A DNA stretch of 64,000 nt from Desulfuromonadales bacterium (GTDB taxonomy: Bacteria > Desulfobacterota > Desulfuromonadia > Desulfuromonadales > SZUA-540), in the NCBI GenBank assembly GCA_033549025.1, contig JAWSUS010000008.1, positions 32,001 through 96,000 on the forward strand. Reading direction: 5' to 3'. Below the pieces are notes generated by a model, which saw nothing but the letters and a program-made list of their open reading frames with translations, ran no database searches and was not told the origin of the DNA. A program made the translations under genes and the position numbers. Shown piece by piece: positions 5,358 through 53,493 of the stretch (position 1 is its first letter; every line of letters begins with the position of its first letter).

Positions 5358-5413
5358 GGTCTCTCCGGTTTTCGGCGGTTATGCGAGAGCGCCTGATGCT
5401 CTCGCCACGCCGG

Positions 5414-23768: not shown

Positions 23769-26168
23769 TTATGCGTTGATTTCCGAGTGTTCGGGAGAGT
23801 CCTCGCCGACACGGTTGCGGTAAGCGGCCATGAACCCGTCGCGCAAGCGGTCCTCGAGCGACACCTTGCGGTCGTCCACATCGTGGGGCCGGACACCGGC
23901 GTCGCTGCGCAGCGGGGTTTCCGTCGATGCCTTGGCGGCGGGCTTGCCGCCCTGGTCGCTGTCGGCGGGTTTCTCTTCCTTGTCCTTGTCCGCTTTGGCC
24001 GACTTGGGCAGGCGCTCGTAAGCGGCCTCGGTGGCGGCGAAGGCTTCGTCGGACAGTTCGGCCAGGCGTTTCAGCTCGGCTTCCCGGTCCTCCTCGGAAG
24101 CGAAGGAGAGTCCCTGCTTCTCCAGACGGGTGAGCAGCTTCTTAGCCCGGGAGCGGCAGGCGGCCGCCTTTTGTTCGGCTTCCAGTTCCTGGACGCGTTT
24201 CTGCAGCTCGGCGACCTGGGCCTTGAGCTGCCGGTTTTCCTTTTCCAGGTCGGTAACACGGGCAGGATCGCCTTCCTGCTGGGCCGGTTTCTTCTTGGCC
24301 GCTTCGACGGCCTGGTCATCGGTGGGTTTGGTTTTGTCTTCCATCGTGGAATCTCCTTCGGGTTGGGATTGGTCGGGCTGGCTCTGAAGGGACGCCACCT
24401 GCAGAATCCTGGCGTTCTCGTCCGCGCCTTTGCGGTCGAGCAGTCCCAGTCCGGTGAAAGTGACGCCGTGCAGAATCTCGAAAACGGGTTGGCCATTGAA
24501 ATCACGGCCCTTGAATTTGCGCAGGTGGGTGCAGTAGTCGGCCTTGTTCTGGAAGCGCTTGTGGCAGACCGAGCATTCGCCTTCCTGGTAGTCGCACTCC
24601 ATGGAGACCTGGGAGATGATCCCGCGCTTCATCAGCTTGTAGGCCAGCCGGGCGGCCGGGGTGTCGTGGACGTACAGCTCGCCGACGCATTCCACGCGGC
24701 CGCCGTTGTCGTCCTCCAGGTAGTCGGCGGCGACGATGCCACCGACGATGTCGTTGAACTCCTGCGAATGCTGCAGATCGACCTTCTTGTTCACGGCCGT
24801 CATGTGCCGACCGGACAACTCCTCGGCGGTGAAGTGGTCGCCGTTCTTGTTGGTCCCTGTGCGGCAGAGCACGAAGCTGAACTGGGGGTCGCCCGCCGAT
24901 CCGACATCCATGGCCTCGGTCGCGAGGCGTTCACCATCGCCCAGCCGGATGTCCACGGGGATGCTGGTGTGGAAGTTCGCGGCGGCGGCCATCGGAACGG
25001 GTTTCTCCTCCCGCTCGGCGCTGGCCTTGGTCCCGGGAGCACAGACAAACAGACGCTCCTTGGCGTTGGAAGCCTCGCCGTGCTTGGAGGTGATGGCGTA
25101 GTGGTGATCCTTGGACTTCATCCGGCTCTGTTTGCCGAAGGAGCCGATGATCCGCTTCATCTCCTGCTCGTTGGGATAGGCGTGATCGCGGTAGGAAATC
25201 AGCCAGTGCGGAATGTGTTTGGCATTGCCGAGAAAGGTCTGGAAGAATTCGCTGGCGTTGGCCTTGGTGACGGTCTTGTGGTCGGTCTCGTAATACTTGA
25301 CCTTGGTGTCGGCCTTGATTTCGAGCCCTTCCCAATAGGTCATGAGCCCCTCCACGAAGTGGTAGGCCCGCTCGTAGTTGGTGGTCGAAAACTCGGTGGC
25401 GTAGGGCGGATCGAAGTAGGCCAGATCCGCCTTGGCTTTCGGCAGCAGGTCGTTGATGTCCTGCCGGTGGGCCTTGTTCTCCTTGTCGTTGTCGAAGACC
25501 AGGGCGTTGATGCGCTGCAGGTTCTTGCGCAGACGATCCTTGAACTCGTCGGGGGTGTCCTGGCGGCGGCCATAGTCGGTGGACGACGAGAAGTGGCCGA
25601 AGCCGCCTTTGCCACTCATGCAGGTCTTGCCGAGACCGAACAGGGCGATGTCTTTCTTAAAGCCGGAGAGCTTGTCGCAGTTGGCGCGGATGGTGTCGAT
25701 CAGCGCATGGACGCCCTTGGCGAAGAAAATGCCCTTGAAGTTGTCCTGAACGAAGCTGCCCGCCTTGGCGTTGTCGGCCAGGAGTGCCTCGATCTCGTCC
25801 TCGCTCAGGCGAACCGAGTTATTCTCGATGATCGCCTTGGCGGCGTGGTGGCAGTAGCGGAGCCGGTCGTTGGCGATGACCTGGAGGCCCTTGGTCTTGT
25901 ACATGTAGGCCACGACCGCAGACCCCGAAAAGGCGTCGAGCACGGTGCAAACGCCTTCCGGGGTATGCTTCCAGATCCAGTCGACGAGCTTCTGCTTACT
26001 GCCGATGTAGTTGGTGATGTACTTGGGGCGTTTCTCGGGAGGGAGCTCTTCAGGAGCGGACTGTTCGGCGGCCTCGGTCCCAAGCGCATCGGGATCGAGA
26101 GTCAGCGCCGCATCGGCCTCCAGTAGAAACGCCAGCCTTTCCAGGTCTGTGGCGAACAGTTCCATCAA
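23769..26168 (-). CDS. Fusion: DNA adenine methyltransferase (D12 class) + prohead protease-like domain + coiled-coil scaffold
   Basis: NYIGSKQKL, DAFSGS, DPPY; then NKNGDHF..H..VSMEC..CSVC; then long charged coiled coil; single frame of 799 aa. Confidence 0.8.
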   Translation of the reverse strand: MMELFATDLERLAFLLEADAALTLDPDALGTEAAEQSAPEELPPEKRPKYITNYIGSKQKLVDWIWKHTPEGVCTVLDAFSGSAVVAYMYKTKGLQVIANDRLRYCHHAAKAIIENNSVRLSEDEIEALLADNAKAGSFVQDNFKGIFFAKGVHALIDTIRANCDKLSGFKKDIALFGLGKTCMSGKGGFGHFSSSTDYGRRQDTPDEFKDRLRKNLQRINALVFDNDKENKAHRQDINDLLPKAKADLAYFDPPYATEFSTTNYERAYHFVEGLMTYWEGLEIKADTKVKYYETDHKTVTKANASEFFQTFLGNAKHIPHWLISYRDHAYPNEQEMKRIIGSFGKQSRMKSKDHHYAITSKHGEASNAKERLFVCAPGTKASAEREEKPVPMAAAANFHTSIPVDIRLGDGERLATEAMDVGSAGDPQFSFVLCRTGTNKNGDHFTAEELSGRHMTAVNKKVDLQHSQEFNDIVGGIVAADYLEDDNGGRVECVGELYVHDTPAARLAYKLMKRGIISQVSMECDYQEGECSVCHKRFQNKADYCTHLRKFKGRDFNGQPVFEILHGVTFTGLGLLDRKGADENARILQVASLQSQPDQSQPEGDSTMEDKTKPTDDQAVEAAKKKPAQQEGDPARVTDLEKENRQLKAQVAELQKRVQELEAEQKAAACRSRAKKLLTRLEKQGLSFASEEDREAELKRLAELSDEAFAATEAAYERLPKSAKADKDKEEKPADSDQGGKPAAKASTETPLRSDAGVRPHDVDDRKVSLEDRLRDGFMAAYRNRVGEDSPEHSEINA

Positions 26169-30100: not shown

Positions 30101-31717
30101 GACCACGGCCTTGGCGGCGTCTTCGAGGGCCGTTTTCTGTTTCAGGATCAACTTCTGCTTGGCCTCGTCGACCGCCTTTTTCTTGACCGACTCGGCCATG
30201 TCGGCACCGGCCTTCTTCTGCAGCGCCTCGACGAGCTGCTGTTTGTTCTTGAGGATGCCGATGCCGTGCTTCTGTTTGGCCGCCGCGAGTTCCTTGCCCA
30301 TCAGGCCGCTGTGGTCCACACCGGGCTCCAGCTTATCCAGCAGCTCGATGGTCTCCTGTTTGGTCATGTTGAGGGAGATGCCGTTCTCCTTCGCCATCTC
30401 CTTGAGCTGCTGGGCAGTCATGCCCCCCAGCCCCTCGGCGGGAGGGATCTTCGCCATCTGGGCGGCGAGCAGCTTGGCCTGTTTGAGTTCCGCCTGCTTC
30501 AGTCCGAGCAGCTCGACCAGTTCTTCCTTGGTCCGCAGCAGACCGATCTTATGTTCCTTGAGCTTGGCGCTGAGCGCCGCTCCGGCCAGGTCGCCGTGAT
30601 CGATCCCGGGTTCGGCCAGATCGAGCAACTTGATGAAATCGGCCTTGGTCCGGGCGATGGCCACGCCGTTCTGTTTCGCCAGGGTCTGGAGCTGTTTGAC
30701 CGTCAGCGAGCCGAGGTCGGCGATGTCGCCGTTTTCAAAGGCGCTCTTGAGCTTGGCATTCTCCTTGGCTTGGGCGTCGGCCATGCCTTCCAGTACGTGG
30801 GGCGGGAGAATGCAGGCGTCCCCCTGAGATGCCTGTGCGGCTGCCTTGGCGGCCATCTCGCTGCCGCAGACGGTCATCGGCCAAGCCACGATATTTGTGC
30901 AGCGGCAGTGCGGATGCGCGGGTTGCTGGGGGAACTTGTCGATTAGAAAGATCTTGCCGTCCAGGCCGCCGCAGACCGGGCACATGCGCTCGTCCTCCAT
31001 GGCCAGCCATTCCAGCTTCTGGATGCCGACCCGCTCGTGGAACTTGAGCCTGCCCATGTTGTGGGCGCGGAGGACCTCGGTGCGGGCGATCATCTCCATG
31101 CGGTACTGCGCCTTGCTGAACACCCGGCTTCCGGCCTGACGAAAGGAATCCTTGTCGATGATCACCTTGCCCATGTCCCGGACGATGTCGTCGGCTCCCT
31201 TGCCCGTGGCGACGCCGTTCAGGATGGTGCGCTTGATGCCGTCTGCGAGTTCGCGGTGGACGTCACCGGCGAGCGTGAGGTTGTACTGAGCCATGAAGTC
31301 GAGGGCGTTGGTGTCGACAATGGTGAACACATTGGTGGCCAACTTGTCGATGCCCTCGGGCTTCAGGTCGGCGTAGAACGGCAGCGCCGCGTCGGCGAGC
31401 TCTCCGATTCCCTGCTGGATGCCGAGCTTGAAGGAGTCCTTGGTCGTCTTGCGAAAGACCAGGGTCTGCTCCCGCTTGAGCCGCTTCATGGTGTCGTCGA
31501 GTTCGAGCTGGAGCTTTTCCAGCCCCTTGAGCGCGGCGAGCTTGTTGTCCGGCAGGGAGCCGAGGGAGCGGTACTGGAGAATGGCGCGGGCGACCTCGTC
31601 TTCGGCCTGTTTCAGCGCCTGGGTGAGCTGGGCCGTGACCTGGTCGTTGTAGCGGTTGCGGGCCGTCAGGCTTTTCAGGGTGGCGACCTGGATGCGCTGC
31701 TTGAGGTCCGATGGCAT
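27128..31717 (-). CDS. MuF/SPP1 gp7 minor head protein fused to helical repeats, a kinase-like domain and a C-terminal enzymatic domain
   Basis: IARTE...CPVCGGLDG...PAHPHCRC; WLFKP, DWLIANHDGH, IDKGQAF; 1529 aa; follows portal. Confidence 0.85.
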   Translation of the reverse strand: MPSDLKQRIQVATLKSLTARNRYNDQVTAQLTQALKQAEDEVARAILQYRSLGSLPDNKLAALKGLEKLQLELDDTMKRLKREQTLVFRKTTKDSFKLGIQQGIGELADAALPFYADLKPEGIDKLATNVFTIVDTNALDFMAQYNLTLAGDVHRELADGIKRTILNGVATGKGADDIVRDMGKVIIDKDSFRQAGSRVFSKAQYRMEMIARTEVLRAHNMGRLKFHERVGIQKLEWLAMEDERMCPVCGGLDGKIFLIDKFPQQPAHPHCRCTNIVAWPMTVCGSEMAAKAAAQASQGDACILPPHVLEGMADAQAKENAKLKSAFENGDIADLGSLTVKQLQTLAKQNGVAIARTKADFIKLLDLAEPGIDHGDLAGAALSAKLKEHKIGLLRTKEELVELLGLKQAELKQAKLLAAQMAKIPPAEGLGGMTAQQLKEMAKENGISLNMTKQETIELLDKLEPGVDHSGLMGKELAAAKQKHGIGILKNKQQLVEALQKKAGADMAESVKKKAVDEAKQKLILKQKTALEDAAKAVVVPDTPTGYKDFLDAIAKAEQAVSGGTDLPQDLLAAHSKEIALKKQLFQDQVGKLKSTELKTLAKETKVQYWQWANKDELTTLFTETDPAKIKAVQASIDTKHAAWAEKHGGKKKTAPAKPATPKKDPPKPAPQPSPVKPPEAKIGKKGAEFATVDSAWQQKGLPSKFKKTGKAAVGGAHEKEFWTDENGDKWLFKPVGRKDDEFIAFGEEAAYKIGRLIDPHSIEVRTIQLNGRTGSIQKWRTDLRDDFDFRNILPQDLTTIELEQIQREHVVDWLIANHDGHSKQFIRARDGRVYGIDKGQAFKFLGQDKLSLDYHPNGVCGEEEPFYNKVFRAAKEGKVRVDPNPTFRYIQEVEKIADEDYLDLLRPYAEGRFSKDPAGLRHFYDLVLERKHNLRRDFEGYYADVLGDRGFRFDKLSAATGKKKLLSSAEETLVEEARKLGWQGKTLPFDSGDVEDQNALIFTESFKGKKRTVVKMKIRPDTDRRIDEVLRRYVQTAAGEKGQPLVEDSFFPTILDAVKNVNFHVGDGKYNRTKIDKALRLRKKLETLQKSADPKVKEMADHYLKWVKEIEESVDWDRATNGVFDQYLPKLDAQKPKEKPPFKVERGKVTHTKRRIGSGTITVEADDIDNRTLFNHNSRMQDGHQYTVTFEDGTRVRYRPWSDTNLYAQRGELEMILDGDATPGRVEAMLEKLEQLGIDTRVATAENAEQMYLEKLAYIRKTDKSADYKRLQKSLDDRNATTTERVQALRGYWQKELGVQDITQLSGYNPLGEYQAGFLDRDAKGGYRHQFRFDITDEELEKQMKGYSLVHDLTNGESMSGFIDLIMENNGAMVSTVEKMRMGVAPGGMSPVADMQTGGASYFFTRIKKQPASDASPALYFKKQMLRRMDAISYDHDAYGKVIDDYVQRNRGASIDDWKRFSQRHGNETIFKYSVTLLDNIEFIVARSDNERREIIQSFTRRGIKKLPDGRKVEDIVHTPQSWSKRKQ

Positions 31718-33225
31718 CAGCGGAGCTCCCGGCGGTCGATGAAGCGACAGGCCGGGGCGTCGAAGGTGCGCTCGCTGTTGTGGACCCGGCAGTGGTTGGT
31801 GTCAGCAATGAAGTGGCTGCACTCGTCGCACACGGCCGCATCGCCGGTGGACTCCAGGTCGCCCGACCAGACCAATGCCGCCTCCGCCGTGGGTTCATCG
31901 TCCTCGGCCGGAATCCCGAGCATCTTCCGGGCGCGAGGCACGCTGAGGATGCCGGAGACGACCATATCCACCACCGGCTTCACCTGCTTCTCGTCCATCA
32001 GGTCGATCTGCTTACGTTCGGTCTCGCGGTTGGCTGCCTCGATGTCCGGGTCCAGGTCCATCTTGAGCTGAAGGCTGGAGCGGCTGATGAGCTTGCGGTC
32101 GTAGAGTTCGATGAGGAGCTTCTTGAAATCGACCGCGTCGCTTGGGTCGAGGTCGTTGAAGATGAACTGGATGCTTTTGTCGCCGTGGCCGTTCAGCTCC
32201 ATCCAGTCGTCGAACACCCAGTCGAGGAGCTTGCGGGCGGCCTGTTTGATCTCGCGGATCATGACCATCATCTTCTGCATGCTCACCGAGGCGGTGGCGA
32301 AATTCGGGCCGTCTCCGGTCACCAGCGAGCGTGACAGCCCCAGGGCCACCACGATGTCTTCCTTTACCTCTTTGACCTTGTCCTCGACGTTGAGGACCTG
32401 ACCGTCGGTGCCGTGGGTTTCGACGTTGACGTAGAACGGGACCACCAGGCCGCTTTTCATATCCATCTTGTTGACCATGTCGCGAACCTGTTCGAGCATC
32501 CGCTGGTCCGGCATCACCATCTTCTGGCCGAACGCGCCGCCCACCTTGAGCAGGCGAAAGGGCGTGGCCCAGCGCTTGGCGATGGCCTGTTCGGCCCGGC
32601 GGTAGTCGCGCAGCAGTTCGATGGCTTGAAATGCGGGAAGCACGAGGGAGTTACCCCGGGGCGAGAAGGCCGGAGCATCCCATTTGAGGTGGACCACCTG
32701 TTCGACGGGCAGCGGGATGGATTCCCCGCCGCCGGGGGTGTCCTCGGGAAATTGCCGGGCCTCGATCAGCTCGCCCTGGGCGTATTTGACTTTGACCGAA
32801 ACCGGGTTGACGCAGACCAGTTCCTCGATGTCCTGGCCGGACTTGGTGAAGCGCTTGAAGCCGATGGCGTCACCTTTCACCAGGAGCTGAAGAACCATGT
32901 CCTTGATGAATTGCGTGATGTTCAACCGCCAGGCGGCCTCCAGTGCCTGCTCCTTGAGGGTCTCGTCATCGCTGGTGATCTTGATCTCGTCGCCCACGGC
33001 GAAGGTGCGCCAGGAGTTGACGCAATTCTTCACCAGCGGCTCCTCGACGTAGTATTCCCAGGCCTTACGGGCGCGTTCTTCCCAGGTGGCCGGAATAGCC
33101 TCGGCGGCGTTGACCTTGCTGAAGGCCGCCGAGTCGAGCGCGGCCGCTGCGGCCAGCGGCGCGATGACAAAGCCGGTGGTGTCCAGGCTTTCGGGTTGTT
33201 CGTCCTGATGGGCGGTGCTTTCCAC
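31717..33225 (-). CDS. Portal protein
   Basis: Between terminase and MuF; LLVKGDA, VVHLK...PRGNS, GPNFATA; probable GTG start at 33225 with GAGG. Confidence 0.85.
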   Translation of the reverse strand: MESTAHQDEQPESLDTTGFVIAPLAAAAALDSAAFSKVNAAEAIPATWEERARKAWEYYVEEPLVKNCVNSWRTFAVGDEIKITSDDETLKEQALEAAWRLNITQFIKDMVLQLLVKGDAIGFKRFTKSGQDIEELVCVNPVSVKVKYAQGELIEARQFPEDTPGGGESIPLPVEQVVHLKWDAPAFSPRGNSLVLPAFQAIELLRDYRRAEQAIAKRWATPFRLLKVGGAFGQKMVMPDQRMLEQVRDMVNKMDMKSGLVVPFYVNVETHGTDGQVLNVEDKVKEVKEDIVVALGLSRSLVTGDGPNFATASVSMQKMMVMIREIKQAARKLLDWVFDDWMELNGHGDKSIQFIFNDLDPSDAVDFKKLLIELYDRKLISRSSLQLKMDLDPDIEAANRETERKQIDLMDEKQVKPVVDMVVSGILSVPRARKMLGIPAEDDEPTAEAALVWSGDLESTGDAAVCDECSHFIADTNHCRVHNSERTFDAPACRFIDRRELR

Positions 33226-33299
33226 GTGATCCTCTCGGTAGTTTCGGCCATGACAGCCACACATCCGGCCCGTGTGGGCCGAACCCGGCTCGATGCCGG

Positions 33300-33339: not shown

Positions 33340-34863
33340 TCAGATGAAGACCGGATTGGTGAGCACGGGTTTGAGCGAAACCACCTCTTCGCCGACCGGG
33401 TCGAGGTTACCTTCTTCCCGGATCAGCATGGCGCATCGCACCGCGTCGATGATGTGGTCGTTGCCCTTGGAATAGATGATCTTGCCGTCCCGCAGGGTGT
33501 AGGTGTGGGTGGTGAATTGGTCTTCCACCTCCAGGTCGTCCGAGGGGAAAATGACCTGCTTACGCTGTAGGGCTCCGTTGATGAGGCTGGTCATCAGCTC
33601 CTTGGTTCGCTTCTTGATTTCCTTTCCGTCCCGCACCGCCAGCCGGGTCATGCCGCCGAAGTCGTATCCCTTGAGCCTGCCTTCCAGCTCCAGCCCTTTG
33701 TACTTGTCCAGGGTGAGCAGCTCCTGAACCACCGCCAGACCGTTTCCGCCGTTGTCCACGCCGATGCCCGCCGGGGTGTAGTAACGCTCCAGCAGCGCGA
33801 TGATCTGGGCGATGTGCGGATAGGAAACGTGTTCAAGATGCACGCGCAGGATCATCTTCAGCAGCGTCCGCTCGCCGATCTCCGTCTCCTGGAATACGAC
33901 GATCTCGGTGGGGTCGTTGGTGTAGCCCAGGTCGCCGCCAACCCAGAACTGCCCGCTGCGGGGCGTGAGGTTGAGCAGCATCTCCAGCCGGTCGTGGGCC
34001 GCTTCCTCAGTGTCGCAATCGCGCAGCTCGGAATCGGTGATGACGATCTTCTGATACTCCAGCAGATCTTGCCGACAGAGGTTGAACTGTTCGACATTGA
34101 AGGCCCCATAGGAGGGCTTGCCGTGTTCACCGGCCACTTCGTGCTGCCAGCCGGAACTGTCGCGGCCGCCGTAGAACTCCAGCAGTTCGGCCTCGCGATC
34201 CTCAGTCCAAAGAGGGTTGAGCCAGGACGGCCAGCGGAACACATGGAACTGCACCGACGAGGTGAGCCGGTAATAGGTGGTGTCGCGCAGGCCGTTGGGC
34301 GTGGAGTAGATGCGTAGCGTCCCCCCGGCCTTGAGGCACTGGCGCAGCGCCTTCCAGGCCCGTTCGGTCAGCCAGGCTCCTTCATCGACCCAGACGCGGC
34401 CCACGTGCAGGGACCGGAAGGCGTCGCCATAGGCCCCGGCCGGGCGGAAATAGAGCACCGAACCGTTGGTGAACTCCAGCCGGAAGTAGGGTTTGCGGTG
34501 GATCTTGGGCTTGCCGTACTTGGTCAGGGCAATGCTGTTCATCAGATCCGGGTTGGTGTCGAGCTGGAACTCGATCTCCTCGATGATGGTATCGAGGTGG
34601 CCCTGGTGCGGAGCCGCGATGAGGCCCTGGCCGCCTCGGGTGGTGAAGGCGTAATGGAGCGCGTCGGTCGAGAGCACGATGGACTTGCCCACGTCCCGGC
34701 CGTCGAGGTGAATGATGTTCTTGGCCGGGCAACGCAGGTCCTCCACCTGGTGCGGCCAGTAGTCGCGGCCTGAGCCATCCCGGTTGTAGAGATAGGCTTG
34801 CCCCCACAACACGGGGTCGCTCAGGGTTGCCGCGAGTTTGCGCTCCTTGTCGGTTACCGCCAT
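33340..34863 (-). CDS. Terminase large subunit
   Basis: GRDVGKS Walker A, VWVDE Walker B, YSTPNG, GGDLG, DHIIDAVR; start ATG 34863. Confidence 0.93.
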   Translation of the reverse strand: MAVTDKERKLAATLSDPVLWGQAYLYNRDGSGRDYWPHQVEDLRCPAKNIIHLDGRDVGKSIVLSTDALHYAFTTRGGQGLIAAPHQGHLDTIIEEIEFQLDTNPDLMNSIALTKYGKPKIHRKPYFRLEFTNGSVLYFRPAGAYGDAFRSLHVGRVWVDEGAWLTERAWKALRQCLKAGGTLRIYSTPNGLRDTTYYRLTSSVQFHVFRWPSWLNPLWTEDREAELLEFYGGRDSSGWQHEVAGEHGKPSYGAFNVEQFNLCRQDLLEYQKIVITDSELRDCDTEEAAHDRLEMLLNLTPRSGQFWVGGDLGYTNDPTEIVVFQETEIGERTLLKMILRVHLEHVSYPHIAQIIALLERYYTPAGIGVDNGGNGLAVVQELLTLDKYKGLELEGRLKGYDFGGMTRLAVRDGKEIKKRTKELMTSLINGALQRKQVIFPSDDLEVEDQFTTHTYTLRDGKIIYSKGNDHIIDAVRCAMLIREEGNLDPVGEEVVSLKPVLTNPVFI

Positions 34864-35141
34864 CAGTGCATTCCTGTCCTCAAGGCGTTGCCGAGGATGG
34901 TGCCCACCAGTTCCGTCAGGATCTGCTGCACGGCCAGGGTGTTCTTCCGGTCGTGGACAGCTTCCTGAATGTCGATGATGGCCTGGTCCAACTCCGCCCA
35001 AGCCAGGTACTGCTGCTGGGCCGCTTCCAGACGGCCGAGGGCGTTCTCTATCCGTCCCGCCGCCAGCTCGGTGCCGATTTCGACCAGGGCCTCACCGGCC
35101 TGGCGGACGGCATCGCTGTTTTCCTGAAGGATCTCTTTCAT
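34863..35141 (-). CDS. Hypothetical helical protein
   Basis: Translationally coupled ORF, 92 aa. Confidence 0.6.
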   Translation of the reverse strand: MKEILQENSDAVRQAGEALVEIGTELAAGRIENALGRLEAAQQQYLAWAELDQAIIDIQEAVHDRKNTLAVQQILTELVGTILGNALRTGMH

Positions 35142-35410
35142 TGGCCTGCCTCCTGGTTCGAGCCGTTGGCCCACTGGTCAAGGGCGTCCACGGCGGTCTG
35201 CAGGCGCAGGCCGACACCGGTCAGGCGCTCGGCGTCCGGGTGGCCGACCTCGCGTAGCGCCTTGTTGGCCTCGGTCACATACTCGGGTGTGTGGCGGTTG
35301 ACGGTGGCCACTGCCGACTGGATCTGGGCCGGAGGCCGGTAGGTGGCGCAGCCGGTCATGATCCCGGCAAGGACCAGCGGGATGGTCCATTCGAGTGTCT
35401 TCTTCAACAT
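35138..35410 (-). CDS. Putative lipoprotein
   Basis: MLKKTLEWTIPLVLAGIMTG-C lipobox-like signal; AAGGAG RBS. Confidence 0.7.
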   Translation of the reverse strand: MLKKTLEWTIPLVLAGIMTGCATYRPPAQIQSAVATVNRHTPEYVTEANKALREVGHPDAERLTGVGLRLQTAVDALDQWANGSNQEAGQ

Positions 35411-35550
35411 GTTGATCTCCTTTGGTTTATGGGTTTGGGGCACATGCAGAAAGATCTCTGCAAACACTTGATTTCCAACGAAATAGAAGCGTCATTGGAT
35501 GTGACGCGGGATGGTCCCGCATCCACGAAAACCGGAACCGGAGGCAGGCC

Positions 35551-35745
35551 ATGACCTACGACAGAAACCGCCAGCAGGCACTCAAGGCGTACCGAGAAAA
35601 GCAGGAGAACATCGCCCGGCTGATCGAGGGCATTCGCGGCAAGCTCGAAGCGGACGCGAAGCAGCCGGACATCACCTGGGCGAGCGTCGGCTCCCTCGGC
35701 CACGTCGAGGAACTGCTGCGGGAGCTGGACGAGTTCCTGTCCTGA
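35551..35745 (+). CDS. Small hypothetical protein
   Basis: GGAGG RBS, 64 aa, first gene of the antisense cassette. Confidence 0.65.
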   Translation: MTYDRNRQQALKAYREKQENIARLIEGIRGKLEADAKQPDITWASVGSLGHVEELLRELDEFLS

Positions 35746-35778
35746 ACACACCGGGCCACCGACAAAGGAGACATCGAC

Positions 35779-36153
35779 ATGACCGAATGCACCGTGCATC
35801 AAGCCGCCGAGGCTTTCATCGGCTACCTGCGGGAATCCGGAAAGAAAGAGCGGACCCTTTACACCTACCGGAAGGACCTCGACGCGGTGGAGGCCTTCTT
35901 CGGCGCGGATCGCCAGCTCGCCGAGATCCGGCTTCCCCAGGTCGGCAAGTTCTACAAGTCCGACCTGCTGCTCAAACTCCCTGACGGCAAGGAGCGGGCC
36001 GAGCGCACCATTGCCAAGACCGTCCGGGTGTTCCGCATGATGATGGTCTGGGCCAGGGAGTCGGGGCGCATCGAGGAGCTGCCGCTGCCCAAGAGCACGC
36101 CCATGGGCCACAGCCGGGTAAAGGAGTCCAGCGATGAGCAACCGAACGGCTGA
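35779..36153 (+). CDS. Stand-alone integrase N-terminal (SAM-like, core-binding) domain protein
   Basis: FIGYLRESGKKERTLYTYRKDL...AERTIAKTVRVFRMMMVWA; no catalytic domain. Confidence 0.75.
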   Translation: MTECTVHQAAEAFIGYLRESGKKERTLYTYRKDLDAVEAFFGADRQLAEIRLPQVGKFYKSDLLLKLPDGKERAERTIAKTVRVFRMMMVWARESGRIEELPLPKSTPMGHSRVKESSDEQPNG

Positions 36154-37048
36154 CCTCGATCTGACGGGCGCGACAGAGGCGTTCTGTGCCCGCCTGTCGG
36201 CCGAAGGACGCTCCCCGGCGACCATAGCCGCATACCGCCGGGACCTCGCCCTGGTAGTCCGCGTGGCCGGGGAGCTGGCCCCTGGGATCGTCTGCCGGGA
36301 GGTCACGGTCGGGTTCCTCGACCAGGTGTTCTCCGCCGGGGCGGTCACTGAGAGTGAGCGAGGCCCACGTTCGGCGGCCTCGCTCCATCGGATGAAGGCG
36401 GCGGTGCGGGCCTTTTTTGCCTGGGCCGCCGAGACGGGCGTGGTCGGTGACAACCCGGCCCGGTCCATCCGCATGCATCGGTTGCCAAGAAAGCTGCCAG
36501 TCTTCCTGACTACCGCCGAAAAGAAACGTCTGCTCAAGGAGCTCAAGGGGCGGACCGATTTCTCCACGCTGCGCGACCGCGCCATGATCGAGGTGTTGCT
36601 GGGCACGGGGATCAGGCTTGGCGAGCTGGCCGCGCTCGACATGGATGACATCGACCTCGACGCCAAGCATCTGCGGGTGCGGGCCAAGGGGAATGTGCCG
36701 CAGGTCAAGTTCATCAAGACCGACCTCCGCACATTGCTGCGCCGTTACCTGGCCGAGCGTCGTCGACACGGCCGCCCAGAAATGGAAGCCCTGTTCCTGT
36801 CGAACCGGGACGGCAGACTCTGCCAGCGGCAGATAGCCAACCGGCTCGCCCACTGGCTGCGGAAGGCCGGGATCGAAAAGGAACTGACGCCGCACGGGCT
36901 GCGGCATACCTTCGCCACCCACCTCTACGGCGCGACCAATGACCTGCTCGTGGTGCAGCGGGCCTTGGGGCACCGGGACGTGTCCACCACCCAGATCTAC
37001 ACCCACCTCGTGGACGGTCAGCTCGAGGAAGCCCTCGAACGCCTTTGA
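36134..37048 (+). CDS. XerC/D-like tyrosine recombinase
   Basis: RDRA..TGIRLGEL, KG, HGLRHTFAT, LGH, TTQIY: complete catalytic set. Confidence 0.93.
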   Translation: MSNRTADLDLTGATEAFCARLSAEGRSPATIAAYRRDLALVVRVAGELAPGIVCREVTVGFLDQVFSAGAVTESERGPRSAASLHRMKAAVRAFFAWAAETGVVGDNPARSIRMHRLPRKLPVFLTTAEKKRLLKELKGRTDFSTLRDRAMIEVLLGTGIRLGELAALDMDDIDLDAKHLRVRAKGNVPQVKFIKTDLRTLLRRYLAERRRHGRPEMEALFLSNRDGRLCQRQIANRLAHWLRKAGIEKELTPHGLRHTFATHLYGATNDLLVVQRALGHRDVSTTQIYTHLVDGQLEEALERL

Positions 37049-37249
37049 TCCTTCCGGACCCGACGATGGGAGCGGCCTCGGCTGCTCCTGTTTTCGTTGG
37101 GCGAGACAGTGTCGAAGACAGTGAATGACAGTGCCCGCAGAAGAACACATCCGCCGATGATGAATGATCATGACGGAGGGTCTCTACATCCCGGGTGGGG
37201 CGGGAAATATCGATTGACCGGAATTTCTCCTTCGCTGTCTGTCGGCCGC

Positions 37250-37490
37250 ACATCGCTATAACTGCTTGGCTTGTGCGCTCCAGTCGCGGAACACACATGG
37301 CAATATCTGCTTGGCATATGCGAGGGCCGTTGCCGAAGGAATGGCTGTTTGCGGGGCTTGTCCGGTTCGGCCTGGGTCTCGACATGCCAATATCTACTTG
37401 GGTTATGTGAGAGAGCCCCGGCGTGAACATGCCTATATCTGCTTGGCTTATGCGGTTCGGCTTATGCGCACACATGCCAAGCGGATATCG
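37250..37490. repeat. Array of ~28-bp imperfect repeats at ~45-bp period
   Basis: Copies at 37250, 37295, 37382, 37427, a degenerate copy near 37340 and a partial/inverted copy at 37472; core ATGCCAA-TATCTGC-TTGGC. Confidence 0.85.
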
Positions 37491-37648
37491 GGAGCTGCTG
37501 GAGGAAGTCGAGGAGTGGAAATGATGATCGACGGCCGGTGAATGCCGATTCCGAAAGTGCAAGGAACACGTCTTATCCGCAATTCCTGGTGTAGCTGTCT
37601 GCCGCAAGTCGCCGTGTGCCGGGGTCATCGGAAAAGCCCTCCATGGTG

Positions 37649-38149
37649 TTATCCGCAATTCTTTCCGCGTTTCTTGCGGCCGGAGGTTTTCGTTGCCGGG
37701 GCGTTGGCGGCCTCGGCCACCTTCTCGAGCAGCGCCGCCGCCCATTCCGCCGGAGAGGTCTGCGGGCCTTTCGGCTCCTCACCCTCGCGGGCAATCTTGG
37801 TGGTCTTGAGATCCTTCATGTGGCAGCGGATCATCCGGTCGAGCTTTTCGGCGGCGTCGGTGTTCCCCTCGATCTGGGCGCGGACCAGCTTCACCGAATA
37901 GACGCCCACCAACTCCACCTGCAGGAAGTCGCTGGACTTGTTGAACTCGAAGTCCTGGTTGAGTCGGTCGATGATCGCGTCGAACATGACCTTCTCTTCC
38001 GGAGTCAGGCAGCGGTCGGCGAAGATGCCGTGACGCAGCCGGTTCTGGTTGCCCTCGGGCGCACCAGGCCCGCGCCGGGGCGGTTCGGTCTTACCCTCGT
38101 TGCGGTGCCAGCGGTCCAGCGTCTCTTTGTCCGGTTTGTTCAGTGCCAC
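37649..38149 (-). CDS. Putative terminase small subunit
   Basis: GAPEGNQNRLRHGIFA motif typical of small terminases. Confidence 0.7.
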   Translation of the reverse strand: MALNKPDKETLDRWHRNEGKTEPPRRGPGAPEGNQNRLRHGIFADRCLTPEEKVMFDAIIDRLNQDFEFNKSSDFLQVELVGVYSVKLVRAQIEGNTDAAEKLDRMIRCHMKDLKTTKIAREGEEPKGPQTSPAEWAAALLEKVAEAANAPATKTSGRKKRGKNCG

Positions 38150-38240
38150 GTGGAAATCCTGCCGAATATTGTTTTCCCAAGCCGGGATGCGGGGCGGGAG
38201 GCCGATTTAGCCTCCAAACGCGCTCCCGCCGGTTCAGGGG

Positions 38241-38271
38241 TTACTTACCGGAAGCGGCGGCCAACTGTCGG
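38241..38271 (-). promoter_or_regulatory. Phage promoter motif upstream of small terminase
   Basis: CCGAC-N15-CCGGTAAGTAA; its final TAA is the stop codon of the HTH gene. Confidence 0.78.
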
Positions 38272-38519
38272 TCCCGGTCCTGTTTTCGTTCGGCGGCGAT
38301 GATCTGATTGACCCGGCGAGTGGTCACTCCAGCGAGGTTGGAGATCTCCTGGCTGCTGATCCCCTGCAGATGAAGGGCAAGCACCAGGTCGCGGCGCTCC
38401 TGGTAAAACCTGCTCGGTGCAGGAACCCAGAGAATCCCGGTGTAGTGCTTCTGGATCTGCTCGAAGAGTTCCTCGGGCAGGACTTCCTTGGCGTTGGCGT
38501 AGCGTTTCTTTTTCTTCAC
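38241..38519 (-). CDS. Small HTH DNA-binding protein
   Basis: YANAKEVLPEELFEQIQKHY...GISSQEISNLAGVTTRRVNQII. Confidence 0.75.
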   Translation of the reverse strand: MKKKKRYANAKEVLPEELFEQIQKHYTGILWVPAPSRFYQERRDLVLALHLQGISSQEISNLAGVTTRRVNQIIAAERKQDRDRQLAAASGK

Positions 38520-38522
38520 GGC

Positions 38523-39293
38523 TCAATCCTCCACTTTCTTCATCCACGGCTGCGGCACGTCCGGGTTGTAGAACCGCAGCGTGCTGGGACGCCCGGACTT
38601 CGGCCCGTGGATAATTTCGATAGAACGCTCGGTGACCTCGCCAATCTCCTGATCGCCATCGACGAAGCAGACCAGGCCGTAGTCCTCGCCGCAGGGAAAC
38701 CGGAAGCGGCCCTGGTTCTGATAGAGGCGTGCCTCGGACCAGCCCTTGGCCATGGCCTCCTCACGGATGGCGTCGACCTTGGCGACAGCCTGGGAAGTCA
38801 CCGGCTGCTTACATTTCCAAGCTTGGTTCCCGGGATAAATCCAGTCCTTTCTGGGAGTTTCGACGGGTTTCTCCTGGGACTCGGGACGAAGCGCGGGTGG
38901 CCGGTAGTTCTTCGGGGAAAAGGACTGCAGGACCTCCTGGAGGCTTTCCTTGCCGAATTCCCGGATGGCCAGCTCCTGCAGGGCGTTGAATCGCTGCCGC
39001 AGCGTATTCCAGGCATCCTCGGGGAGCTTTCCGGCCTTGTGCGCGGCTTGGGCGGTGACCATGCGGGAACGTAGCCAGGCAAAGTATTCAGGCGACAGAC
39101 GGCGACACAGCGTGCCGTCGATCTCCATGTCTTCAGGCCAGTCGCGTGCGTCTTCGATCTCGTGGACGTCGAGCCCAGTGGAGACATAGATGGCGGGCTG
39201 CGGTGGTTGCGGTGGTAATAATGGGACTTCACATCCGGCCGAGGCGTCCTGACCTCCGGCGGTGTGCTTGATCATGGTTTTCAGAAGGCTCAT
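38523..39293 (-). CDS. Hypothetical protein
   Basis: 256 aa ORF downstream of a motif copy, GGAG RBS. Confidence 0.65.
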   Translation of the reverse strand: MSLLKTMIKHTAGGQDASAGCEVPLLPPQPPQPAIYVSTGLDVHEIEDARDWPEDMEIDGTLCRRLSPEYFAWLRSRMVTAQAAHKAGKLPEDAWNTLRQRFNALQELAIREFGKESLQEVLQSFSPKNYRPPALRPESQEKPVETPRKDWIYPGNQAWKCKQPVTSQAVAKVDAIREEAMAKGWSEARLYQNQGRFRFPCGEDYGLVCFVDGDQEIGEVTERSIEIIHGPKSGRPSTLRFYNPDVPQPWMKKVED

Positions 39294-39333
39294 GGTTTCA
39301 GGCTCCAGAAATACGGGTTAATCGCTTTTCCCG

Positions 39334-39364
39334 TTACTTACCGGATCTGCCCTGAAACCGTCGG
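39334..39364 (-). promoter_or_regulatory. Phage promoter motif next to the origin
   Basis: CCGAC-N15-CCGGTAAGTAA. Confidence 0.8.
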
Positions 39365-39375
39365 TGACCATCTGC

Positions 39376-39727
39376 TGCGGTGGATACGTGCGGTGGCTGC
39401 GGTGGTCGTGCGGTGGAAGGTTTCCTCGTCCCACCGCAGGGCATGGCTCTTTGTTTGTTATTTGTTTTTAGATAGTTATGAAGAAAGAGAAGATAGAGTG
39501 CGGTGGTTGCGGTGGTATTTGGGGAATGTCTCTCTCGCTGGGCCGGAATTTCTCTAGCGGGAAACGCCAGGTTGGTAGGAAGGAAAAATATTTCAGCCCA
39601 TAGGGGGTGAGACCTCTGGGTTTACCACCGCAACCACCGCAAAGGCCATGAAAGCTCTGTCTGGCAAGGGTTTGGCGTGCGGTGGTTATCCACCGCAAGG
39701 GACAGCGGTGTTCACCGCACCACCGCA
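39376..39727. repeat. Putative phage replication origin: TGCGGTGG iterons around an AT-rich tract
   Basis: 12 exact octamers in both orientations, AT-rich 39449-39497, directly downstream of the primase-helicase. Confidence 0.75.
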
Positions 39728-39780
39728 AAAGAAAAGGACGCCCGAGAGCGTCCTGGATGATTTGGTCAGATGGCGTGGAG

Positions 39781-42700
39781 TTAGAGATTGGCAGTCTTGA
39801 CGATCCGGTATTCGAAGTTCTTGGTGTGGGCGTTGCGCTGCCGGTCGATGTCAAACCCGGCGTCCCGGATGACGTCCAGGTCGTTGCTGATGCGCCGACC
39901 GAGCTGGGCGGGCTTCTTGTATTCGAACTCGAGGTTGAATTCCCGGCCGACCCTGCGCAGCGCCGCGAGCAGCCGTCCCGCCGACACCGGTTCCATGGTG
40001 TTCTCGTTCTCGAACCTCACCTGATAGCGTTCGATGAACCCCACCACGTGGTTTGCCCGGTCGTCCTCGCCGTAGCGGGCCTTCTCGTCCAGTTCCACCG
40101 CGTTCCGGTAGGCATGGAAGAGCGACGCCAGCGCCGTGGCAATGGGGTTCGACTCCCGGGCCATTTCCTGGCTGGTGTCGTTAATGGAATGGATCTGCTC
40201 GATGAACAGCGGGCTCAGCTCCTCGAGTCCGGTGGTCACCTCGTGCTCCTCGGACCCGGCCAGCATCATCAGATACATCAGGCTCAGATAGTCGTTGCAC
40301 CGGCGCTTGCCATGAGTCGGCATGGTTCGGTGCAGCAGACGCATGACCTGTTTCTGGGCTCCGTCCCGAATCATCGCCAACACATGGCTCGTCCGCTTCA
40401 TGATGGCCGAAATGATCAGATCCCGGTTCTGCTGGATGGCGGAGATGACCTCCGATTCCAGAAAGCAGTCGCTGGCCTGGTTGGCGAGGTCGAAGTTGAT
40501 GACGAAGGACCTCGACAGTATCTCCGAAAGCTCCCCGCACAGCGGCTCGATGCCGGTGGTGTTCAGCAGGCATTTGGTCCGCTCGGTGATGGTCTCGCTG
40601 TCTGTGCCGCTCTTGCGTTTCTCCTTGGCGATGCCGGTGATGCTGGTCAGCATGAAGGTGGTCAGATCCTCGGTCATCTGCTTGACCTCGATGTTGTCGA
40701 GGACGATGAGCGGGTTCTGCGAGCCATCGGTGTAGTTCGCCGCGTCGGTGGCTTTCTTGTGCTGGGGCTCGCCGTAAAGCAGCGTCGACGTGATCTTGCT
40801 GGCGGTGGTCTTGCCCGATCCGGCCGAACCCTCGAAGCGGGTCATGGGCCGCGTCCCGGCGAAGTCGATCAGCAGGAAACAGGAGAGCCAGGAAAGGATG
40901 AGAAATCGATCCCCCTGCGGACAGGTCATATTGCCCACCAGCAGATCGACCAGGAGCCGGTCCGCCTCTTCGAGGTCGGCGTCGGGCAGGAATTTCAGCG
41001 GCTTCATCTTGCGCGAGCCGTCCAGGATGATGCCGTCCTCGTTGCCGCCGTTCTTCATGATCTGAATCTCGTCCGGGGTGATCTTGGCGATCTCGTGCTC
41101 CGGATTGTTCAGGTTGAAATAGACGGTGTAGGAGGCCACATCGGTGTGCAGCCAGGAAAAATGGTCGCGCACCTGGCCACGGATCATCGCCAGGCTTGGC
41201 AACACCTCGAAAAATGTCCGTCCGCCGTTGGAGGTCGGCACCATGCCCGCGTGCTTATAGAGCATGGCCGCGTAATGGCGCTTGCGGCCCCGGTCCGGCG
41301 AATCCATCCAGTAGATGGCGTTGTCGAAATACATGAACGGCTCGCCCTGCAGGGTGTGAAAGAACTGGGCACCGTTGGCGGTGAACCAGTCGTAGGCGGC
41401 CTCGGCGGCCAGGGTGTAGTCGGGAGCGCCGTTCTCCAGTTCCGTGTCGATCAGCACCTCGTCGACCCGGGCGCGGCATGATCCGGGCATCGCGCCGGAC
41501 ATCCGCTTGGCCTTCTTCTTTTCATTACGGAACTCGACCTTGCGGTCCTTCTGGATGGCGCGGATCTGCTCTTTCAGGGTGGCCATCGAAACGCCACCGC
41601 CGATGCGCTCCTGCACCAGCTTCAGCAGGCGGGCCTGTTCCAGCGGCGACTGCTCGGAAATCTCCCTCAGGATCGGTTCGAGCAGGCGGTTGCGTTCCTC
41701 CTCATCAGCGCCCTCGGGTAGCGAGCGCACGCCGAACTCGATGGGCGTGCTGGCTTCTGCGAGCAGGCGTTCGAAATCCTCCCGGGTATGCCCGGCGGCA
41801 ATGTAATCGTTGACGTCTATCTTGGCGGTGGCGAGAAGCGCCTCGGCCGCCTGAATCTCTTCGGCGGGACGTCCCGCCAGCAGCTTGGCCAGCTCCTTCG
41901 GCCCCACGCTCGCCGTCAGGCCGAAGCGTTTGGTCAGCTCCTGCCGGGCCGAGATCTGTGTCTCCGACAAGGGCAGCGTCACCAGGCGGGTGTCGATCTT
42001 GTGTTCGGCCAGGGTGCGAGCGGTTTGCAGCGCCCCCTTGAGACCGGCCTGGGAGAGTTCGTTGTCCTGGCAGATGTAGACGGTTTCGACGCCGCGCAGC
42101 TTGGGGATCAGGCGCTCCCAATCGGCGGCCCGGATGCGAACGGTGACCGGCGACACGGTGGGCAGGCCCAGTTGCATCAGCGCCAGGCAATCGGTCACCC
42201 CCTCGGTGATGATCACCTTGCCGGGCCTGGCCAGCAGGCAGTCCTCGTTGAACAGCAGCGCGTTGTTGATGAAGTCGGCGACGTAGGGCCGCTGGTGCTC
42301 GTCGTGAACCGGCAGTTTCTTGTATTTCCCTTGCTCCCAGCCCACGTCCGGGGTCCACGGCGTCTTGCGGCCGATCATGAACACCACCCGGCCACGGCTC
42401 CAGTAGGGAAAGACGATGCGGCGCTCGAAAAATGGCGTCAGGCCATCCTGGCTCGTGGGCCGGAAAGCGCCGGTGGCGGCAAGCTCCCGCTTGGAGAAGC
42501 CGTCTTCGCCCCGGGTCAGTTGGGCGACCGCGCCGGACGCGTTGTCCGCGTAGCCGATCAGGAGATCGTCGATGGTCTCCTCGCTCAGGGCGTATTTGGA
42601 TTTCAGCCAGTCGAGGACCTCCGGCGACTCCTTGAGCCTGGCGTGGTAAAGCCTGGCCAGCGCGGTCAGCGCGTCCTTGACCCGCAGTTCGAAGGCGCGG

Positions 42701-43095
42701 TCGGCCTCTGTCTGGGCCAGACGCTCCTGGCTGAGGCCATAGCGCGACAGCGGCGGCAAGCCCGCCTTCTTGGCGAGATAGTCCCGGGCCTGACGGTGGC
42801 TGTCCGGCATCGGACCGGATTGCCCGGCGGTGACCGAGCCCGTCTGAATGAACTCAACGAGCTGCAGCACATCACCGCCGACTCCGCAGCCGAAGCAGTA
42901 CCAGCCCTGCTTGTCGAGCATCACGTGCAGCGACAGACGCGACTGGCTCTGATGGTTGGGGCAGTCGCACATCAAGCGCTGGCCGGTCTCTTGGGTGATC
43001 CGTCCCGGCAGGAGTGCCCGGGCCACGTCACCGATGTCCATCTCGGTGACGAGCCGGTAATACTCCCTGACGTTATCCGTTCCGCCCATACTCAT
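39781..43095 (-). CDS. DNA primase-helicase (zinc finger, TOPRIM, P-loop)
   Basis: CPNH..CFGC, ITEGVTD, CQDNE, KIDVND, GSAGSGKT. Confidence 0.9.
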   Translation of the reverse strand: MSMGGTDNVREYYRLVTEMDIGDVARALLPGRITQETGQRLMCDCPNHQSQSRLSLHVMLDKQGWYCFGCGVGGDVLQLVEFIQTGSVTAGQSGPMPDSHRQARDYLAKKAGLPPLSRYGLSQERLAQTEADRAFELRVKDALTALARLYHARLKESPEVLDWLKSKYALSEETIDDLLIGYADNASGAVAQLTRGEDGFSKRELAATGAFRPTSQDGLTPFFERRIVFPYWSRGRVVFMIGRKTPWTPDVGWEQGKYKKLPVHDEHQRPYVADFINNALLFNEDCLLARPGKVIITEGVTDCLALMQLGLPTVSPVTVRIRAADWERLIPKLRGVETVYICQDNELSQAGLKGALQTARTLAEHKIDTRLVTLPLSETQISARQELTKRFGLTASVGPKELAKLLAGRPAEEIQAAEALLATAKIDVNDYIAAGHTREDFERLLAEASTPIEFGVRSLPEGADEEERNRLLEPILREISEQSPLEQARLLKLVQERIGGGVSMATLKEQIRAIQKDRKVEFRNEKKKAKRMSGAMPGSCRARVDEVLIDTELENGAPDYTLAAEAAYDWFTANGAQFFHTLQGEPFMYFDNAIYWMDSPDRGRKRHYAAMLYKHAGMVPTSNGGRTFFEVLPSLAMIRGQVRDHFSWLHTDVASYTVYFNLNNPEHEIAKITPDEIQIMKNGGNEDGIILDGSRKMKPLKFLPDADLEEADRLLVDLLVGNMTCPQGDRFLILSWLSCFLLIDFAGTRPMTRFEGSAGSGKTTASKITSTLLYGEPQHKKATDAANYTDGSQNPLIVLDNIEVKQMTEDLTTFMLTSITGIAKEKRKSGTDSETITERTKCLLNTTGIEPLCGELSEILSRSFVINFDLANQASDCFLESEVISAIQQNRDLIISAIMKRTSHVLAMIRDGAQKQVMRLLHRTMPTHGKRRCNDYLSLMYLMMLAGSEEHEVTTGLEELSPLFIEQIHSINDTSQEMARESNPIATALASLFHAYRNAVELDEKARYGEDDRANHVVGFIERYQVRFENENTMEPVSAGRLLAALRRVGREFNLEFEYKKPAQLGRRISNDLDVIRDAGFDIDRQRNAHTKNFEYRIVKTANL

Positions 43096-53064: not shown

Positions 53065-53493
53065 CGAACGCAAGTCCGGTTCAAGCCGGATGTAACCAGA
53101 TAACCGACCAGAGGCGGAGCTGAGGCGGTTGTGGGTGCCATAGAACGCGCATCCCGACCGCCACCGTTTTCTGGCATCCACACCATCCAGTCCCCCGGTC
53201 CCACCGGAGGTGTTCGATGTTGGATGTCCAGGAAATGAATGATGGGCCGGGGATGGATGACCTTGGCGAAAACGGCAAACCCGGCCGCTTGTCGGGTGAG
53301 GCGAGGCTCCAGTCAGCCGCTTCCATTCTGGCCACGGCGATCCTGCGCCGAAAGGCAAAAAACGCATGTGTGGGCAATGAGTTAGATGCTTTCGAAGATT
53401 CTTCCCCTGTGCTCGGAGAAGGACTTGATTCATTGCCGGAACAGAGCATTCATTCATGACAACTCGTCCGGAAAACAAAATAAGGAGTTGAAA

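Follow-up and report, generated by a model that had tools for sequence, protein, structure and literature searches.

Phage P1 carries the tyrosine recombinase Cre together with its loxP site, which lies near the packaging genes; the system circularises terminally redundant DNA and resolves dimers, and does not serve integration. loxP is a simple 34-bp site with neither accessory array nor partner protein, and P1 lysogenises as a plasmid. At cer, the accessory factors ArgR and PepA are host proteins. Here we describe an array of tandem repeats with a 45-bp period, and the recombinase genes and sites around it, in a prophage of a Desulfuromonadales bacterium (assembly GCA_033549025.1). The DNA analyzed, hereafter the window, covers 64 kb on one contig of this 3.39-Mb genome (JAWSUS010000008.1, positions 32,001–96,000 of the forward strand), and all coordinates refer to it unless stated otherwise.

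Four further systems share features with this locus. [quoted passage not shown] The dif sites are composed of two 11-bp half-sites and a 6-bp centre, and in the case of XerS/difSL the gene and the site form one module (PMC5357621). The lambda-type cosB, 120 bp long, contains three small-terminase (TerS) sites (R3, R2 and R1), one of them in the opposite orientation, and N15 has a single critical cosB site, proposed to have arisen from unequal crossing-over between repeats with the loss of two (PMC4669245). The sopC region of the F plasmid contains 12 direct 43-bp repeats, and SopB binds a 16-bp inverted-repeat motif present in each of them (PMC3177203).

Analysis of the window and of its relatives revealed that the array lies between two convergent genes, encoding a Xer-like tyrosine recombinase (Rec304; 36134–37048, + strand) and a TerS-like protein of 166 aa (37649–38149, − strand). 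We read it tentatively, from sequence comparison and with a probability of roughly 40%, as a dispensable set of accessory sites for protein binding, belonging to a phage-borne Xer-type recombination module whose crossover would take place in a dif-like palindrome at 37552–37589.

The array begins 200 bp past the recombinase stop codon (37048). Its four direct units, all on the + strand, are A (37250–37277), B (37295–37322), D (37382–37409) and E (37427–37454), with 5, 2, 3 and 1 mismatches, respectively, to a 28-nt consensus; a decayed unit C (37340–37381, + strand) occupies 42 nt and is 3 nt short. The array is closed by a terminal structure (37457–37496) composed of an extra copy of the unit 3′ motif (37457–37468) and an inverted partial unit (37469–37496; 8 mismatches to the consensus). 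The start-to-start spacings are 45, 45, 42, 45 and 45, and the 17-nt linkers between the units differ from one another.

When both strands of the window were compared with the 28-nt consensus at up to 10 mismatches, four direct matches and one inverted match were found, and nothing more. No match at ≤8 mismatches occurred in 100 first-order Markov simulations of 64 kb, a test that is slightly circular, as the consensus was built from the array copies themselves. Across the whole genome, only three matches with ≤3 mismatches were identified, all of them array units. The 45-bp-period array that an earlier note on this DNA, made from the sequence alone, had described is confirmed, with its degenerate unit at 37340 and its inverted copy. 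A CRISPR-like array was also considered and was rejected: the 17-nt linkers are too short, the repeats are 69–83% alike and no similar repeat is present elsewhere in the genome.

The earlier note had idealised each repeat as ATGCCAA-N7-TTGGCAT, and this dyad stands in part. In a set of 28 distinct units, drawn from 25 arrays of five units, complementarity holds at 141 of 196 arm cells, compared to at most 75 of 196 in slid registers. Searched alone with ≤3 mismatches, the idealised palindrome is not significant (5 matches in the window against 2.15 expected; 10 of 100 shuffles reach 5). It is also imperfect and without covariation, since none of the 28 distinct units has 7/7 complementary arms and all arm changes are one-sided, with 0 compensatory. 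The best conserved portion of the unit is its asymmetric right two-thirds, and the centres differ from unit to unit. The internal palindrome of the unit is real but modest.

The constraint acting on the array was analyzed in the five-unit arrays of group 1 (recombinase ≥89% identical), to which the comparison of units and linkers applies (21 distinct arrays from 25 loci). Variable positions account for 19 of 112 in the units and for 25 of 51 in the linkers (Fisher p = 4e-5). Assigned to codon phases, 86 array substitutions were distributed 31/33/22, with a third-position excess in no frame. In 39 of 40 loci one minus-strand frame runs over the array free of stops, and every length variant is a multiple of 3. 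An Rfam scan of the array gave no match above noise (one, E = 0.26). Since the units vary less than the linkers and there is no codon-position bias, the array is a set of constrained non-coding DNA sites and not a gene, which supports this part of the earlier interpretation. The alternative raised at that time, a 15-aa peptide repeat, finds the open frame in its favour and no coding signature, and is unsupported.

A search with the recombinase yielded 63 viral-contig loci. Among 39 viral-contig loci of group 1, five units are present in 24 loci, four in 1, two in 7 and one in 7; a further 17 group 1 loci in species-representative genomes contain five units (15 loci) or one unit (2 loci). A comparison of related prophages, which the earlier note had recommended, therefore revealed a variable copy number (1, 2, 4 or 5 units). 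All group 1 arrays, in every length class, end alike, with the last unit, a second copy of the 3′ motif 14 nt further on and the inverted partial unit. In the shorter arrays the junction units are hybrids of the units that flank the missing stretch.

In group 2 (recombinase about 70% identical) the array consists of three units spaced exactly 45 and 45 bp. Their sequence and linkers are unlike those of group 1; the TTATGCGC motif and the inverted pairs are common to both. In both groups the array starts about 65–70 bp from the dif-like palindrome, on the side away from the H0 half-site described below. A distant relative, L135, contains four 32-bp tandem repeats (5235–5369) in this same gap, on the stretch that separates the recombinase gene from the palindrome, and their sequence has no relation to that of the 45-bp units.

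A scan of viral contigs for two TTATGCGC-type motifs about 45 bp apart gave 121 stretches, of which 80 loci were taken, and no new context was found among them: 14 are group 2 relatives, and 66, without a recombinase or TerS-like homologue, look like coding repeats or chance matches. Contigs from four of 24 sequencing runs (X1, X5, X7 and X8) covering 36800–38200 span the array with five units and no joints; such contigs drop rare variants and are uninformative on heterogeneity, DNA ends or transcription.

The dif-like palindrome (37552–37589, − strand) has arms of about 15 nt and a 6-bp centre, GACGTG in the window. In 13 diverse loci, with G–T counted as a pair, 74.4% of the arm cells are complementary, compared to 67.4 ± 2.2% in shuffled sets (reached by 0 of 500 shuffles) and 25–49% in slid registers. 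Eight of the 15 arm positions have changed on both sides, and the covariation score, under the same pairing rule, is 0.241 against 0.148 (reached by 2 of 500 shuffles). The 6-nt centre falls into a few whole types among these loci. The layout, two dyad half-sites around a 6-bp central region, is that of a dif-type core, and the palindrome is likely the crossover site of Rec304.

A further copy of the left arm of the core, termed H0, is located 76 bp from it (37646–37661, − strand) and overlaps the stop codon of the TerS-like gene. Every lineage has, in the intergenic region that the TerS-like and recombinase genes enclose, two copies of this approximately 15-nt sequence at a distance of 75–76 bp, and the second copy abuts an inverted one; the spacing of H0 and the core was 75–76 bp in 15 of 15 loci in which both were found. 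A position weight matrix (PWM), built from 28 arms of array-less relatives, gave its two best scores in the window, 18.5 bits each, on the minus strand at 37649–37660 (H0) and 37573–37584 (left arm of the core), followed by a next best score of 15.5 bits. H0 tends to match the arms of the locus in which it lies, a pattern that favours protein binding over a hairpin.

In many relatives the TerS-like protein reads through H0 as ..SDNT.. and continues for about 20 residues more, so the bases of H0 serve both as a DNA site and as a protein tail. In the group to which the window belongs the frame is shifted, with the stop inside H0.

The unit motif and the left arm of the core have the same orientation in both groups (TTATGCGC and TTATCCGC, respectively, in group 1), with 7/8 identity in group 1 and 5/8 in group 2. 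A search of the host genome with a dif-like pattern gave 4 matches, against 2 for a control pattern. One of the 4, located in a low-GC gap of host contig 20 (53260–53282; L147), is a candidate chromosomal dif; its left half, together with the beginning of the centre, is similar to the corresponding half of the phage palindrome.

Rec304 has a two-domain layout, with a SAM-like core-binding domain (PF02899, SAM_1; 2.5e-10) and a catalytic domain (PF00589, Phage_integrase; 2.3e-42). Its full-length NCBIfam matches are XerC (223 bits; cut-off 335), XerD (206; 330) and XerA (194; 220). Being below the equivalog cut-offs, it is not XerC or XerD proper by NCBIfam. Residues R161, K185, H254, R257, H280 and Y289 are invariant in 8 family members and, judging from the motif contexts in which they were read, appear to constitute an intact catalytic hexad.

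The second recombinase-family gene of the module encodes CB124 (35779–36153, + strand), a protein of 124 aa without a catalytic domain, whose gene overlaps the start of the recombinase gene by 20 nt. Its sequence matches are weak: Pfam Phage_int_SAM_1 at E = 0.007 (below the cut-off), the phrog_1 integrase at 5e-7 and the N-terminus of XerC/XerD at approximately 1.5e-3. The AlphaFold model of CB124 has a predicted local distance difference test (pLDDT) value of 86, and the top approximately 35 Foldseek matches in the PDB are nearly all N-terminal or core-binding domains of tyrosine recombinases, including those of lambda Int, Tn1549 Int, XerD and XerA (probability 0.92–1.00, TM 0.5–0.77, E from 7e-3 to 0.4, none below 1e-3). 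By its predicted fold CB124 is a core-binding domain only, and this model supports the stand-alone core-binding protein proposed in the earlier note. A separate CB124 open reading frame (ORF) is kept across the family. At L123 (1546–2205) the pair is fused or decayed, with a core-binding ORF that continues in frame into N-terminal recombinase sequence and ends there.

The first gene of the recombinase operon is a small ORF of 64 aa, counted from ATG (35553–35745, + strand); a longer ORF (35422–35745) weakly matches phrog_14596. A homologue of the small ORF is present upstream of the core-binding gene in groups 1 and 2 (tblastn). The candidate p107 was considered as an array-specific gene and was rejected, a homologous small ORF being visible by eye in the array-less locus L061.

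The conservation of this arrangement was examined in 80 loci obtained by a search with an alignment of the 166-aa TerS-like protein. In 73 of them Rec304 is convergent and just downstream of the TerS-like gene, followed by the core-binding ORF and then by TerL. Among the remaining loci, five contigs end too early, L125 has no homologue within 2 kb and L078 has suffered a deletion, which runs from inside the GACAGTG repeats (see below) into TerL. In line with the earlier note, which had placed the repeats behind a tyrosine recombinase, the array is situated in the cis-acting region of a conserved recombinase module.

The TerS-like protein is probably a small terminase, as suggested by weak matches of its residues 22–67 to phrog_1889 (1e-4) and NF040601 (4.7e-3; 16.6 bits against a cut-off of 120). 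In addition, one homologue is labelled YjcR and an Atlas lead points to Terminase_4 (score 0.87). Fold searches with its model (pLDDT 62) gave nothing significant (Foldseek E ≥ 0.017), and a sequence profile compared with the PDB gave nothing relevant. The protein is 57–75% identical across the family.

Compared with the described systems, the locus resembles Cre/loxP in having a phage-borne tyrosine recombinase with its site close to packaging genes, and differs from it in the array and in the partner protein, as well as in that the P1 prophage is a plasmid. The likeness to the Tn4430 IRS (PMC2847244) lies in a tyrosine recombinase gene beside the site, an inverted core pair and dispensable direct motifs on one side. 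All four Tn4430 motifs share a 9-bp sequence within a 116-bp site; here the array motif is only loosely core-like, up to five units follow one another at 45 bp, a half-site flanks the opposite side and the module has a second protein, which lacks a catalytic domain. With Xer/dif the module shares the full-length XerC/XerD/XerA matches of Rec304, the order half-site, 6-bp centre, half-site, and a gene adjoining its site, as in XerS/difSL (PMC5357621); it differs in that Rec304 scores below the cut-offs, the module is phage-borne within a packaging module and the arms covary over approximately 15 nt.

According to the reading preferred here, recombination between two copies of the palindrome would be carried out by Rec304, possibly aided by CB124. 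Such a reaction, similar to that of Cre/lox or XerS/difSL, would circularise a terminally redundant genome or resolve multimers independently of the host. Proteins occupying the array would give the synapse its shape and favour intramolecular deletion between directly repeated sites, in parallel to the role of DR1–DR2 for TnpI and of the accessory sequences at cer, and units would be gained and lost through unequal exchange between them. As for accessory sequences, the direct repeats lie on one side of the core and are dispensable (1–5 units; none in most relatives). The place of the array between convergent genes, where no promoter is needed, is conserved. The similar distance from the core in two lineages, the orientation of the units and their loose likeness to the core arm also speak for an accessory array, as does the existence of a spare core-binding protein, CB124.

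Several observations weigh against this reading. The 45-bp period corresponds to a non-integer number of helical turns, and direct repeats about 45 bp apart, accompanied by one inverted copy, with loss by unequal crossover, are also the lambda-type cosB pattern (PMC4669245). The array is absent from every examined relative at 55–66% recombinase identity (by eye or with a repeat finder) and from L299, a locus of the group 2 type, so that in most of the family Rec304 and CB124 are retained and an array is lacking. It is found on different sides of a GGAAAT element (described below) in groups 1 and 2, and in group 2 it occupies the place of the GACAGTG repeats, which are carried by group 1, L299, L123 and L128. 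In L078, a degraded prophage that has lost the recombinase cassette, five units are retained. The best array unit reaches 9.7 bits on the arm PWM, rank 13 in the window. Finally, groups 1 and 2 differ in their core arms and not in the array motif, which implies that the protein binding the array may not be the domain that reads the core. Because copy number, presence and placement vary among relatives, the array is best described as an optional, movable and expandable part of the gap.

The main rival, less probable than the accessory array and on balance unlikely, takes the units for small-terminase recognition repeats (pac- or cosB-like), an alternative named in the earlier note and still a live one. 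An oligomer of the TerS-like protein would attach to the direct units and to the inverted copy, past the end of the gene that encodes it, and start packaging. In packaging-gene order the only conserved TerS candidate immediately precedes the array and TerL comes after it, and the constancy of its motif between groups 1 and 2 is matched by that of the N-terminal motif of the TerS-like protein. One to five units plus an inverted copy also parallel the three cosB sites, one inverted, and the single N15 site (PMC4669245). Like the array, cosB consists of short repeats, one inverted, beside terS, with relatives that have fewer by unequal crossing-over; it is placed between cosN and the start of terS, whereas the array is downstream of the TerS-like gene and beside a recombinase site. 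The identification of the TerS-like protein depends on the weak matches given above, with nothing significant in fold searches. Moreover, the protein is maintained family-wide and most members that encode it are without the array, which is therefore not the essential packaging signal of the family.

We regard it as very improbable that each unit is itself a crossover site for Rec304/CB124, with the copy-number changes as site-specific products. The recombinase gene is only 200 bp away, the units have partly complementary 7-nt arms around a 7-nt centre (141/196), and the hybrid units of the shorter arrays occur exactly at unit-to-unit junctions; homologous or slipped exchange between 28-nt repeats accounts for the hybrids equally well. 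Active direct crossover sites beside their enzyme would be expected to collapse, and the persistence of five units in 24 of 39 viral and 15 of 17 genome loci, differing by 3–8% in DNA, argues against such activity. Tyrosine recombinases generally require matching centres, and those of the units differ; no arms pair at 7/7 and none show compensatory change. In addition, the array is missing from most relatives that keep both recombinase-family genes, and the family-wide site lies elsewhere, in the palindrome, outside the coordinates given in the earlier note, so the units, which that note had taken for binding or crossover sites, are probably not where crossover occurs.

Binding of another protein to the array, either a phage regulator, a host architectural protein or a partition protein as at sopC, appears improbable. 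The form of sopC, tandem direct repeats of 43 bp with an internal inverted repeat in each, is close to the 45-bp units with their dyad (PMC3177203), and small helix-turn-helix proteins are encoded nearby, among them a 92-aa ORF (38241–38519) that matches phrog_836 (late transcriptional activator; 1.6e-5). The units of the array are far more diverged than those of sopC. No ParA or ParB and no other partition gene was detected in a Pfam scan of 43 ORFs (short ORFs and the region 49.6–53.4 kb were outside the scan), the element is integrated and has a serine recombinase, and between the convergent genes there is no promoter to regulate: a promoter scan over 3 kb gave one promoter-like match, outside the array.

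There is similarly little probability that the array is without a function of its own, as a homogenised tandem expansion of the terminal inverted structure, or that it is an RNA or peptide-repeat element or a replication origin. Its optional occurrence and a copy number drifting from 1 to 5 would suit a functionless expansion; the units are significantly more conserved than the linkers, and a second lineage keeps the 45-bp period with other linkers. The peptide version has in its favour the minus-strand frame and the length changes in multiples of 3 described above, and against it the lack of third-position bias. As an RNA element the array would have no Rfam match above noise and arm changes that break pairing without compensation. 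As an origin it would lie 2.3 kb from the primase gene, and an 8-mer cluster beside that gene (39368–39734) fits better.

Further elements were identified in the same gap. A G+C-rich hairpin with a T-rich tail (37066–37099, + strand), a likely terminator, was recognised by eye after the recombinase stop codon; it is conserved in relatives and was not listed by the consensus scan. It is followed by three GACAGTG repeats (37103–37131, + strand) with spacings of 13 and 11 nt, and the same heptamers are present in the distant loci L123, L128 and L299. Both groups, and distant relatives as well, retain an inverted-repeat element of the form GGAAAT...TCGATTGA...ATTTC (37203–37230), which in group 2 is merged with the right palindrome arm. 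In L013, L017 and L023 a 75-nt G+C-rich insertion separates the GACAGTG repeats from the GGAAAT element, and L017 contains a further insertion of about 66 nt after the terminator.

Most of the window is occupied by the prophage, nearly all genes of which are on the minus strand. To the left of the array are tail and baseplate genes, a gene for a large MuF-domain protein, the portal gene (31717–33264) and TerL (33340–35001); headful packaging is suggested by the MuF-like and portal genes. The structural module also includes a gene (23769–26168) for a 799-aa protein that has a D12-class N6-adenine methyltransferase domain. To the right, from 38523 to about 49600, is a replication module with genes for a primase (39781–43095), a RecD-like helicase, an ERCC4 nuclease, a Sak4-like protein and an exonuclease. 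The low-GC gap between a 256-aa ORF and the primase gene (39368–39734) contains at least 10 copies of one 8-mer in both orientations, with a perfect 19-nt inverted repeat (39499–39517/39623–39641) inside the cluster, and is likely an iteron-type replication origin.

At its right end the prophage encodes a DUF2924 protein (53386–54018) and a large serine recombinase (54011–55597), abutting the transfer-messenger RNA (tmRNA) gene (56438–56793) and smpB. From this position we infer that the serine recombinase is the prophage integrase. Since the prophage has a serine recombinase next to tmRNA, Rec304 is probably not its integrase; the Rec304 gene is situated in the middle of the element, on the strand opposite to most genes, between the replication and packaging modules. 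A search for a second copy of the tmRNA 3′ end gave a sole match of 26 nt, inverted and 87 kb away.

The segment of about 6 kb around the recombinase (33600–39600; L278–L298) shows 92–97% DNA identity among records titled as different orders and phyla. The titles include Desulfosarcina, Desulfofustis, Desulfobulbus, Desulforhopalus, Desulfocarbo, Syntrophus and Ectothiorhodospira, with complete isolate genomes among them, and the segment is also present in metagenome bins of other phyla, including Verrucomicrobiota and Hydrogenedentales. This may reflect either an unusually broad host range or carry-over during binning or assembly in some records. No cultured relatives were found in the phage collection: blastn of 35400–39400 gave one 90-nt match, tblastn with TerL at most 28% identity, and tblastn with Rec304 ≤36% identity, mostly to bacterial XerC/XerD in mislabelled records. 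In the open-access papers searched, no report was found of a phage module composed of a Xer-like recombinase and terminase, of a tyrosine recombinase that cyclizes terminally redundant phage DNA, or of a core-binding partner without a catalytic domain.

Given such identity across orders and phyla, a recombination device independent of the host would be useful, and we may speculate that a phage of broad range would gain from circularisation or resolution without host functions. It is possible, if doubtful, that this prophage family, present with little change in hosts from different orders and phyla, has a two-protein Xer-type device of its own set between the terS-like and terL genes, made up of a full recombinase, a paralogue cut down to the core-binding domain, a dif-like site with its phased half-site and the expandable 45-bp array, and that this device acts as a host-independent, packaging-coupled system for circularisation and resolution. 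Should the array instead be a TerS site, it would offer a natural series of one to five repeats in which to follow the evolution of packaging signals.

Tyrosine recombinases of prophages are routinely annotated as integrases. Here a serine recombinase probably fills that role; the Xer-like enzyme and its partner, which lacks a catalytic domain, belong instead to the packaging module as a constant component throughout a widespread family. If the palindrome with its optional array is the site of this enzyme, the family would possess a natural Cre/lox-like system in which an accessory architecture and a half-recombinase partner are already built in, which would bear on the control of synapsis and directionality and might provide a compact, host-independent recombination tool.

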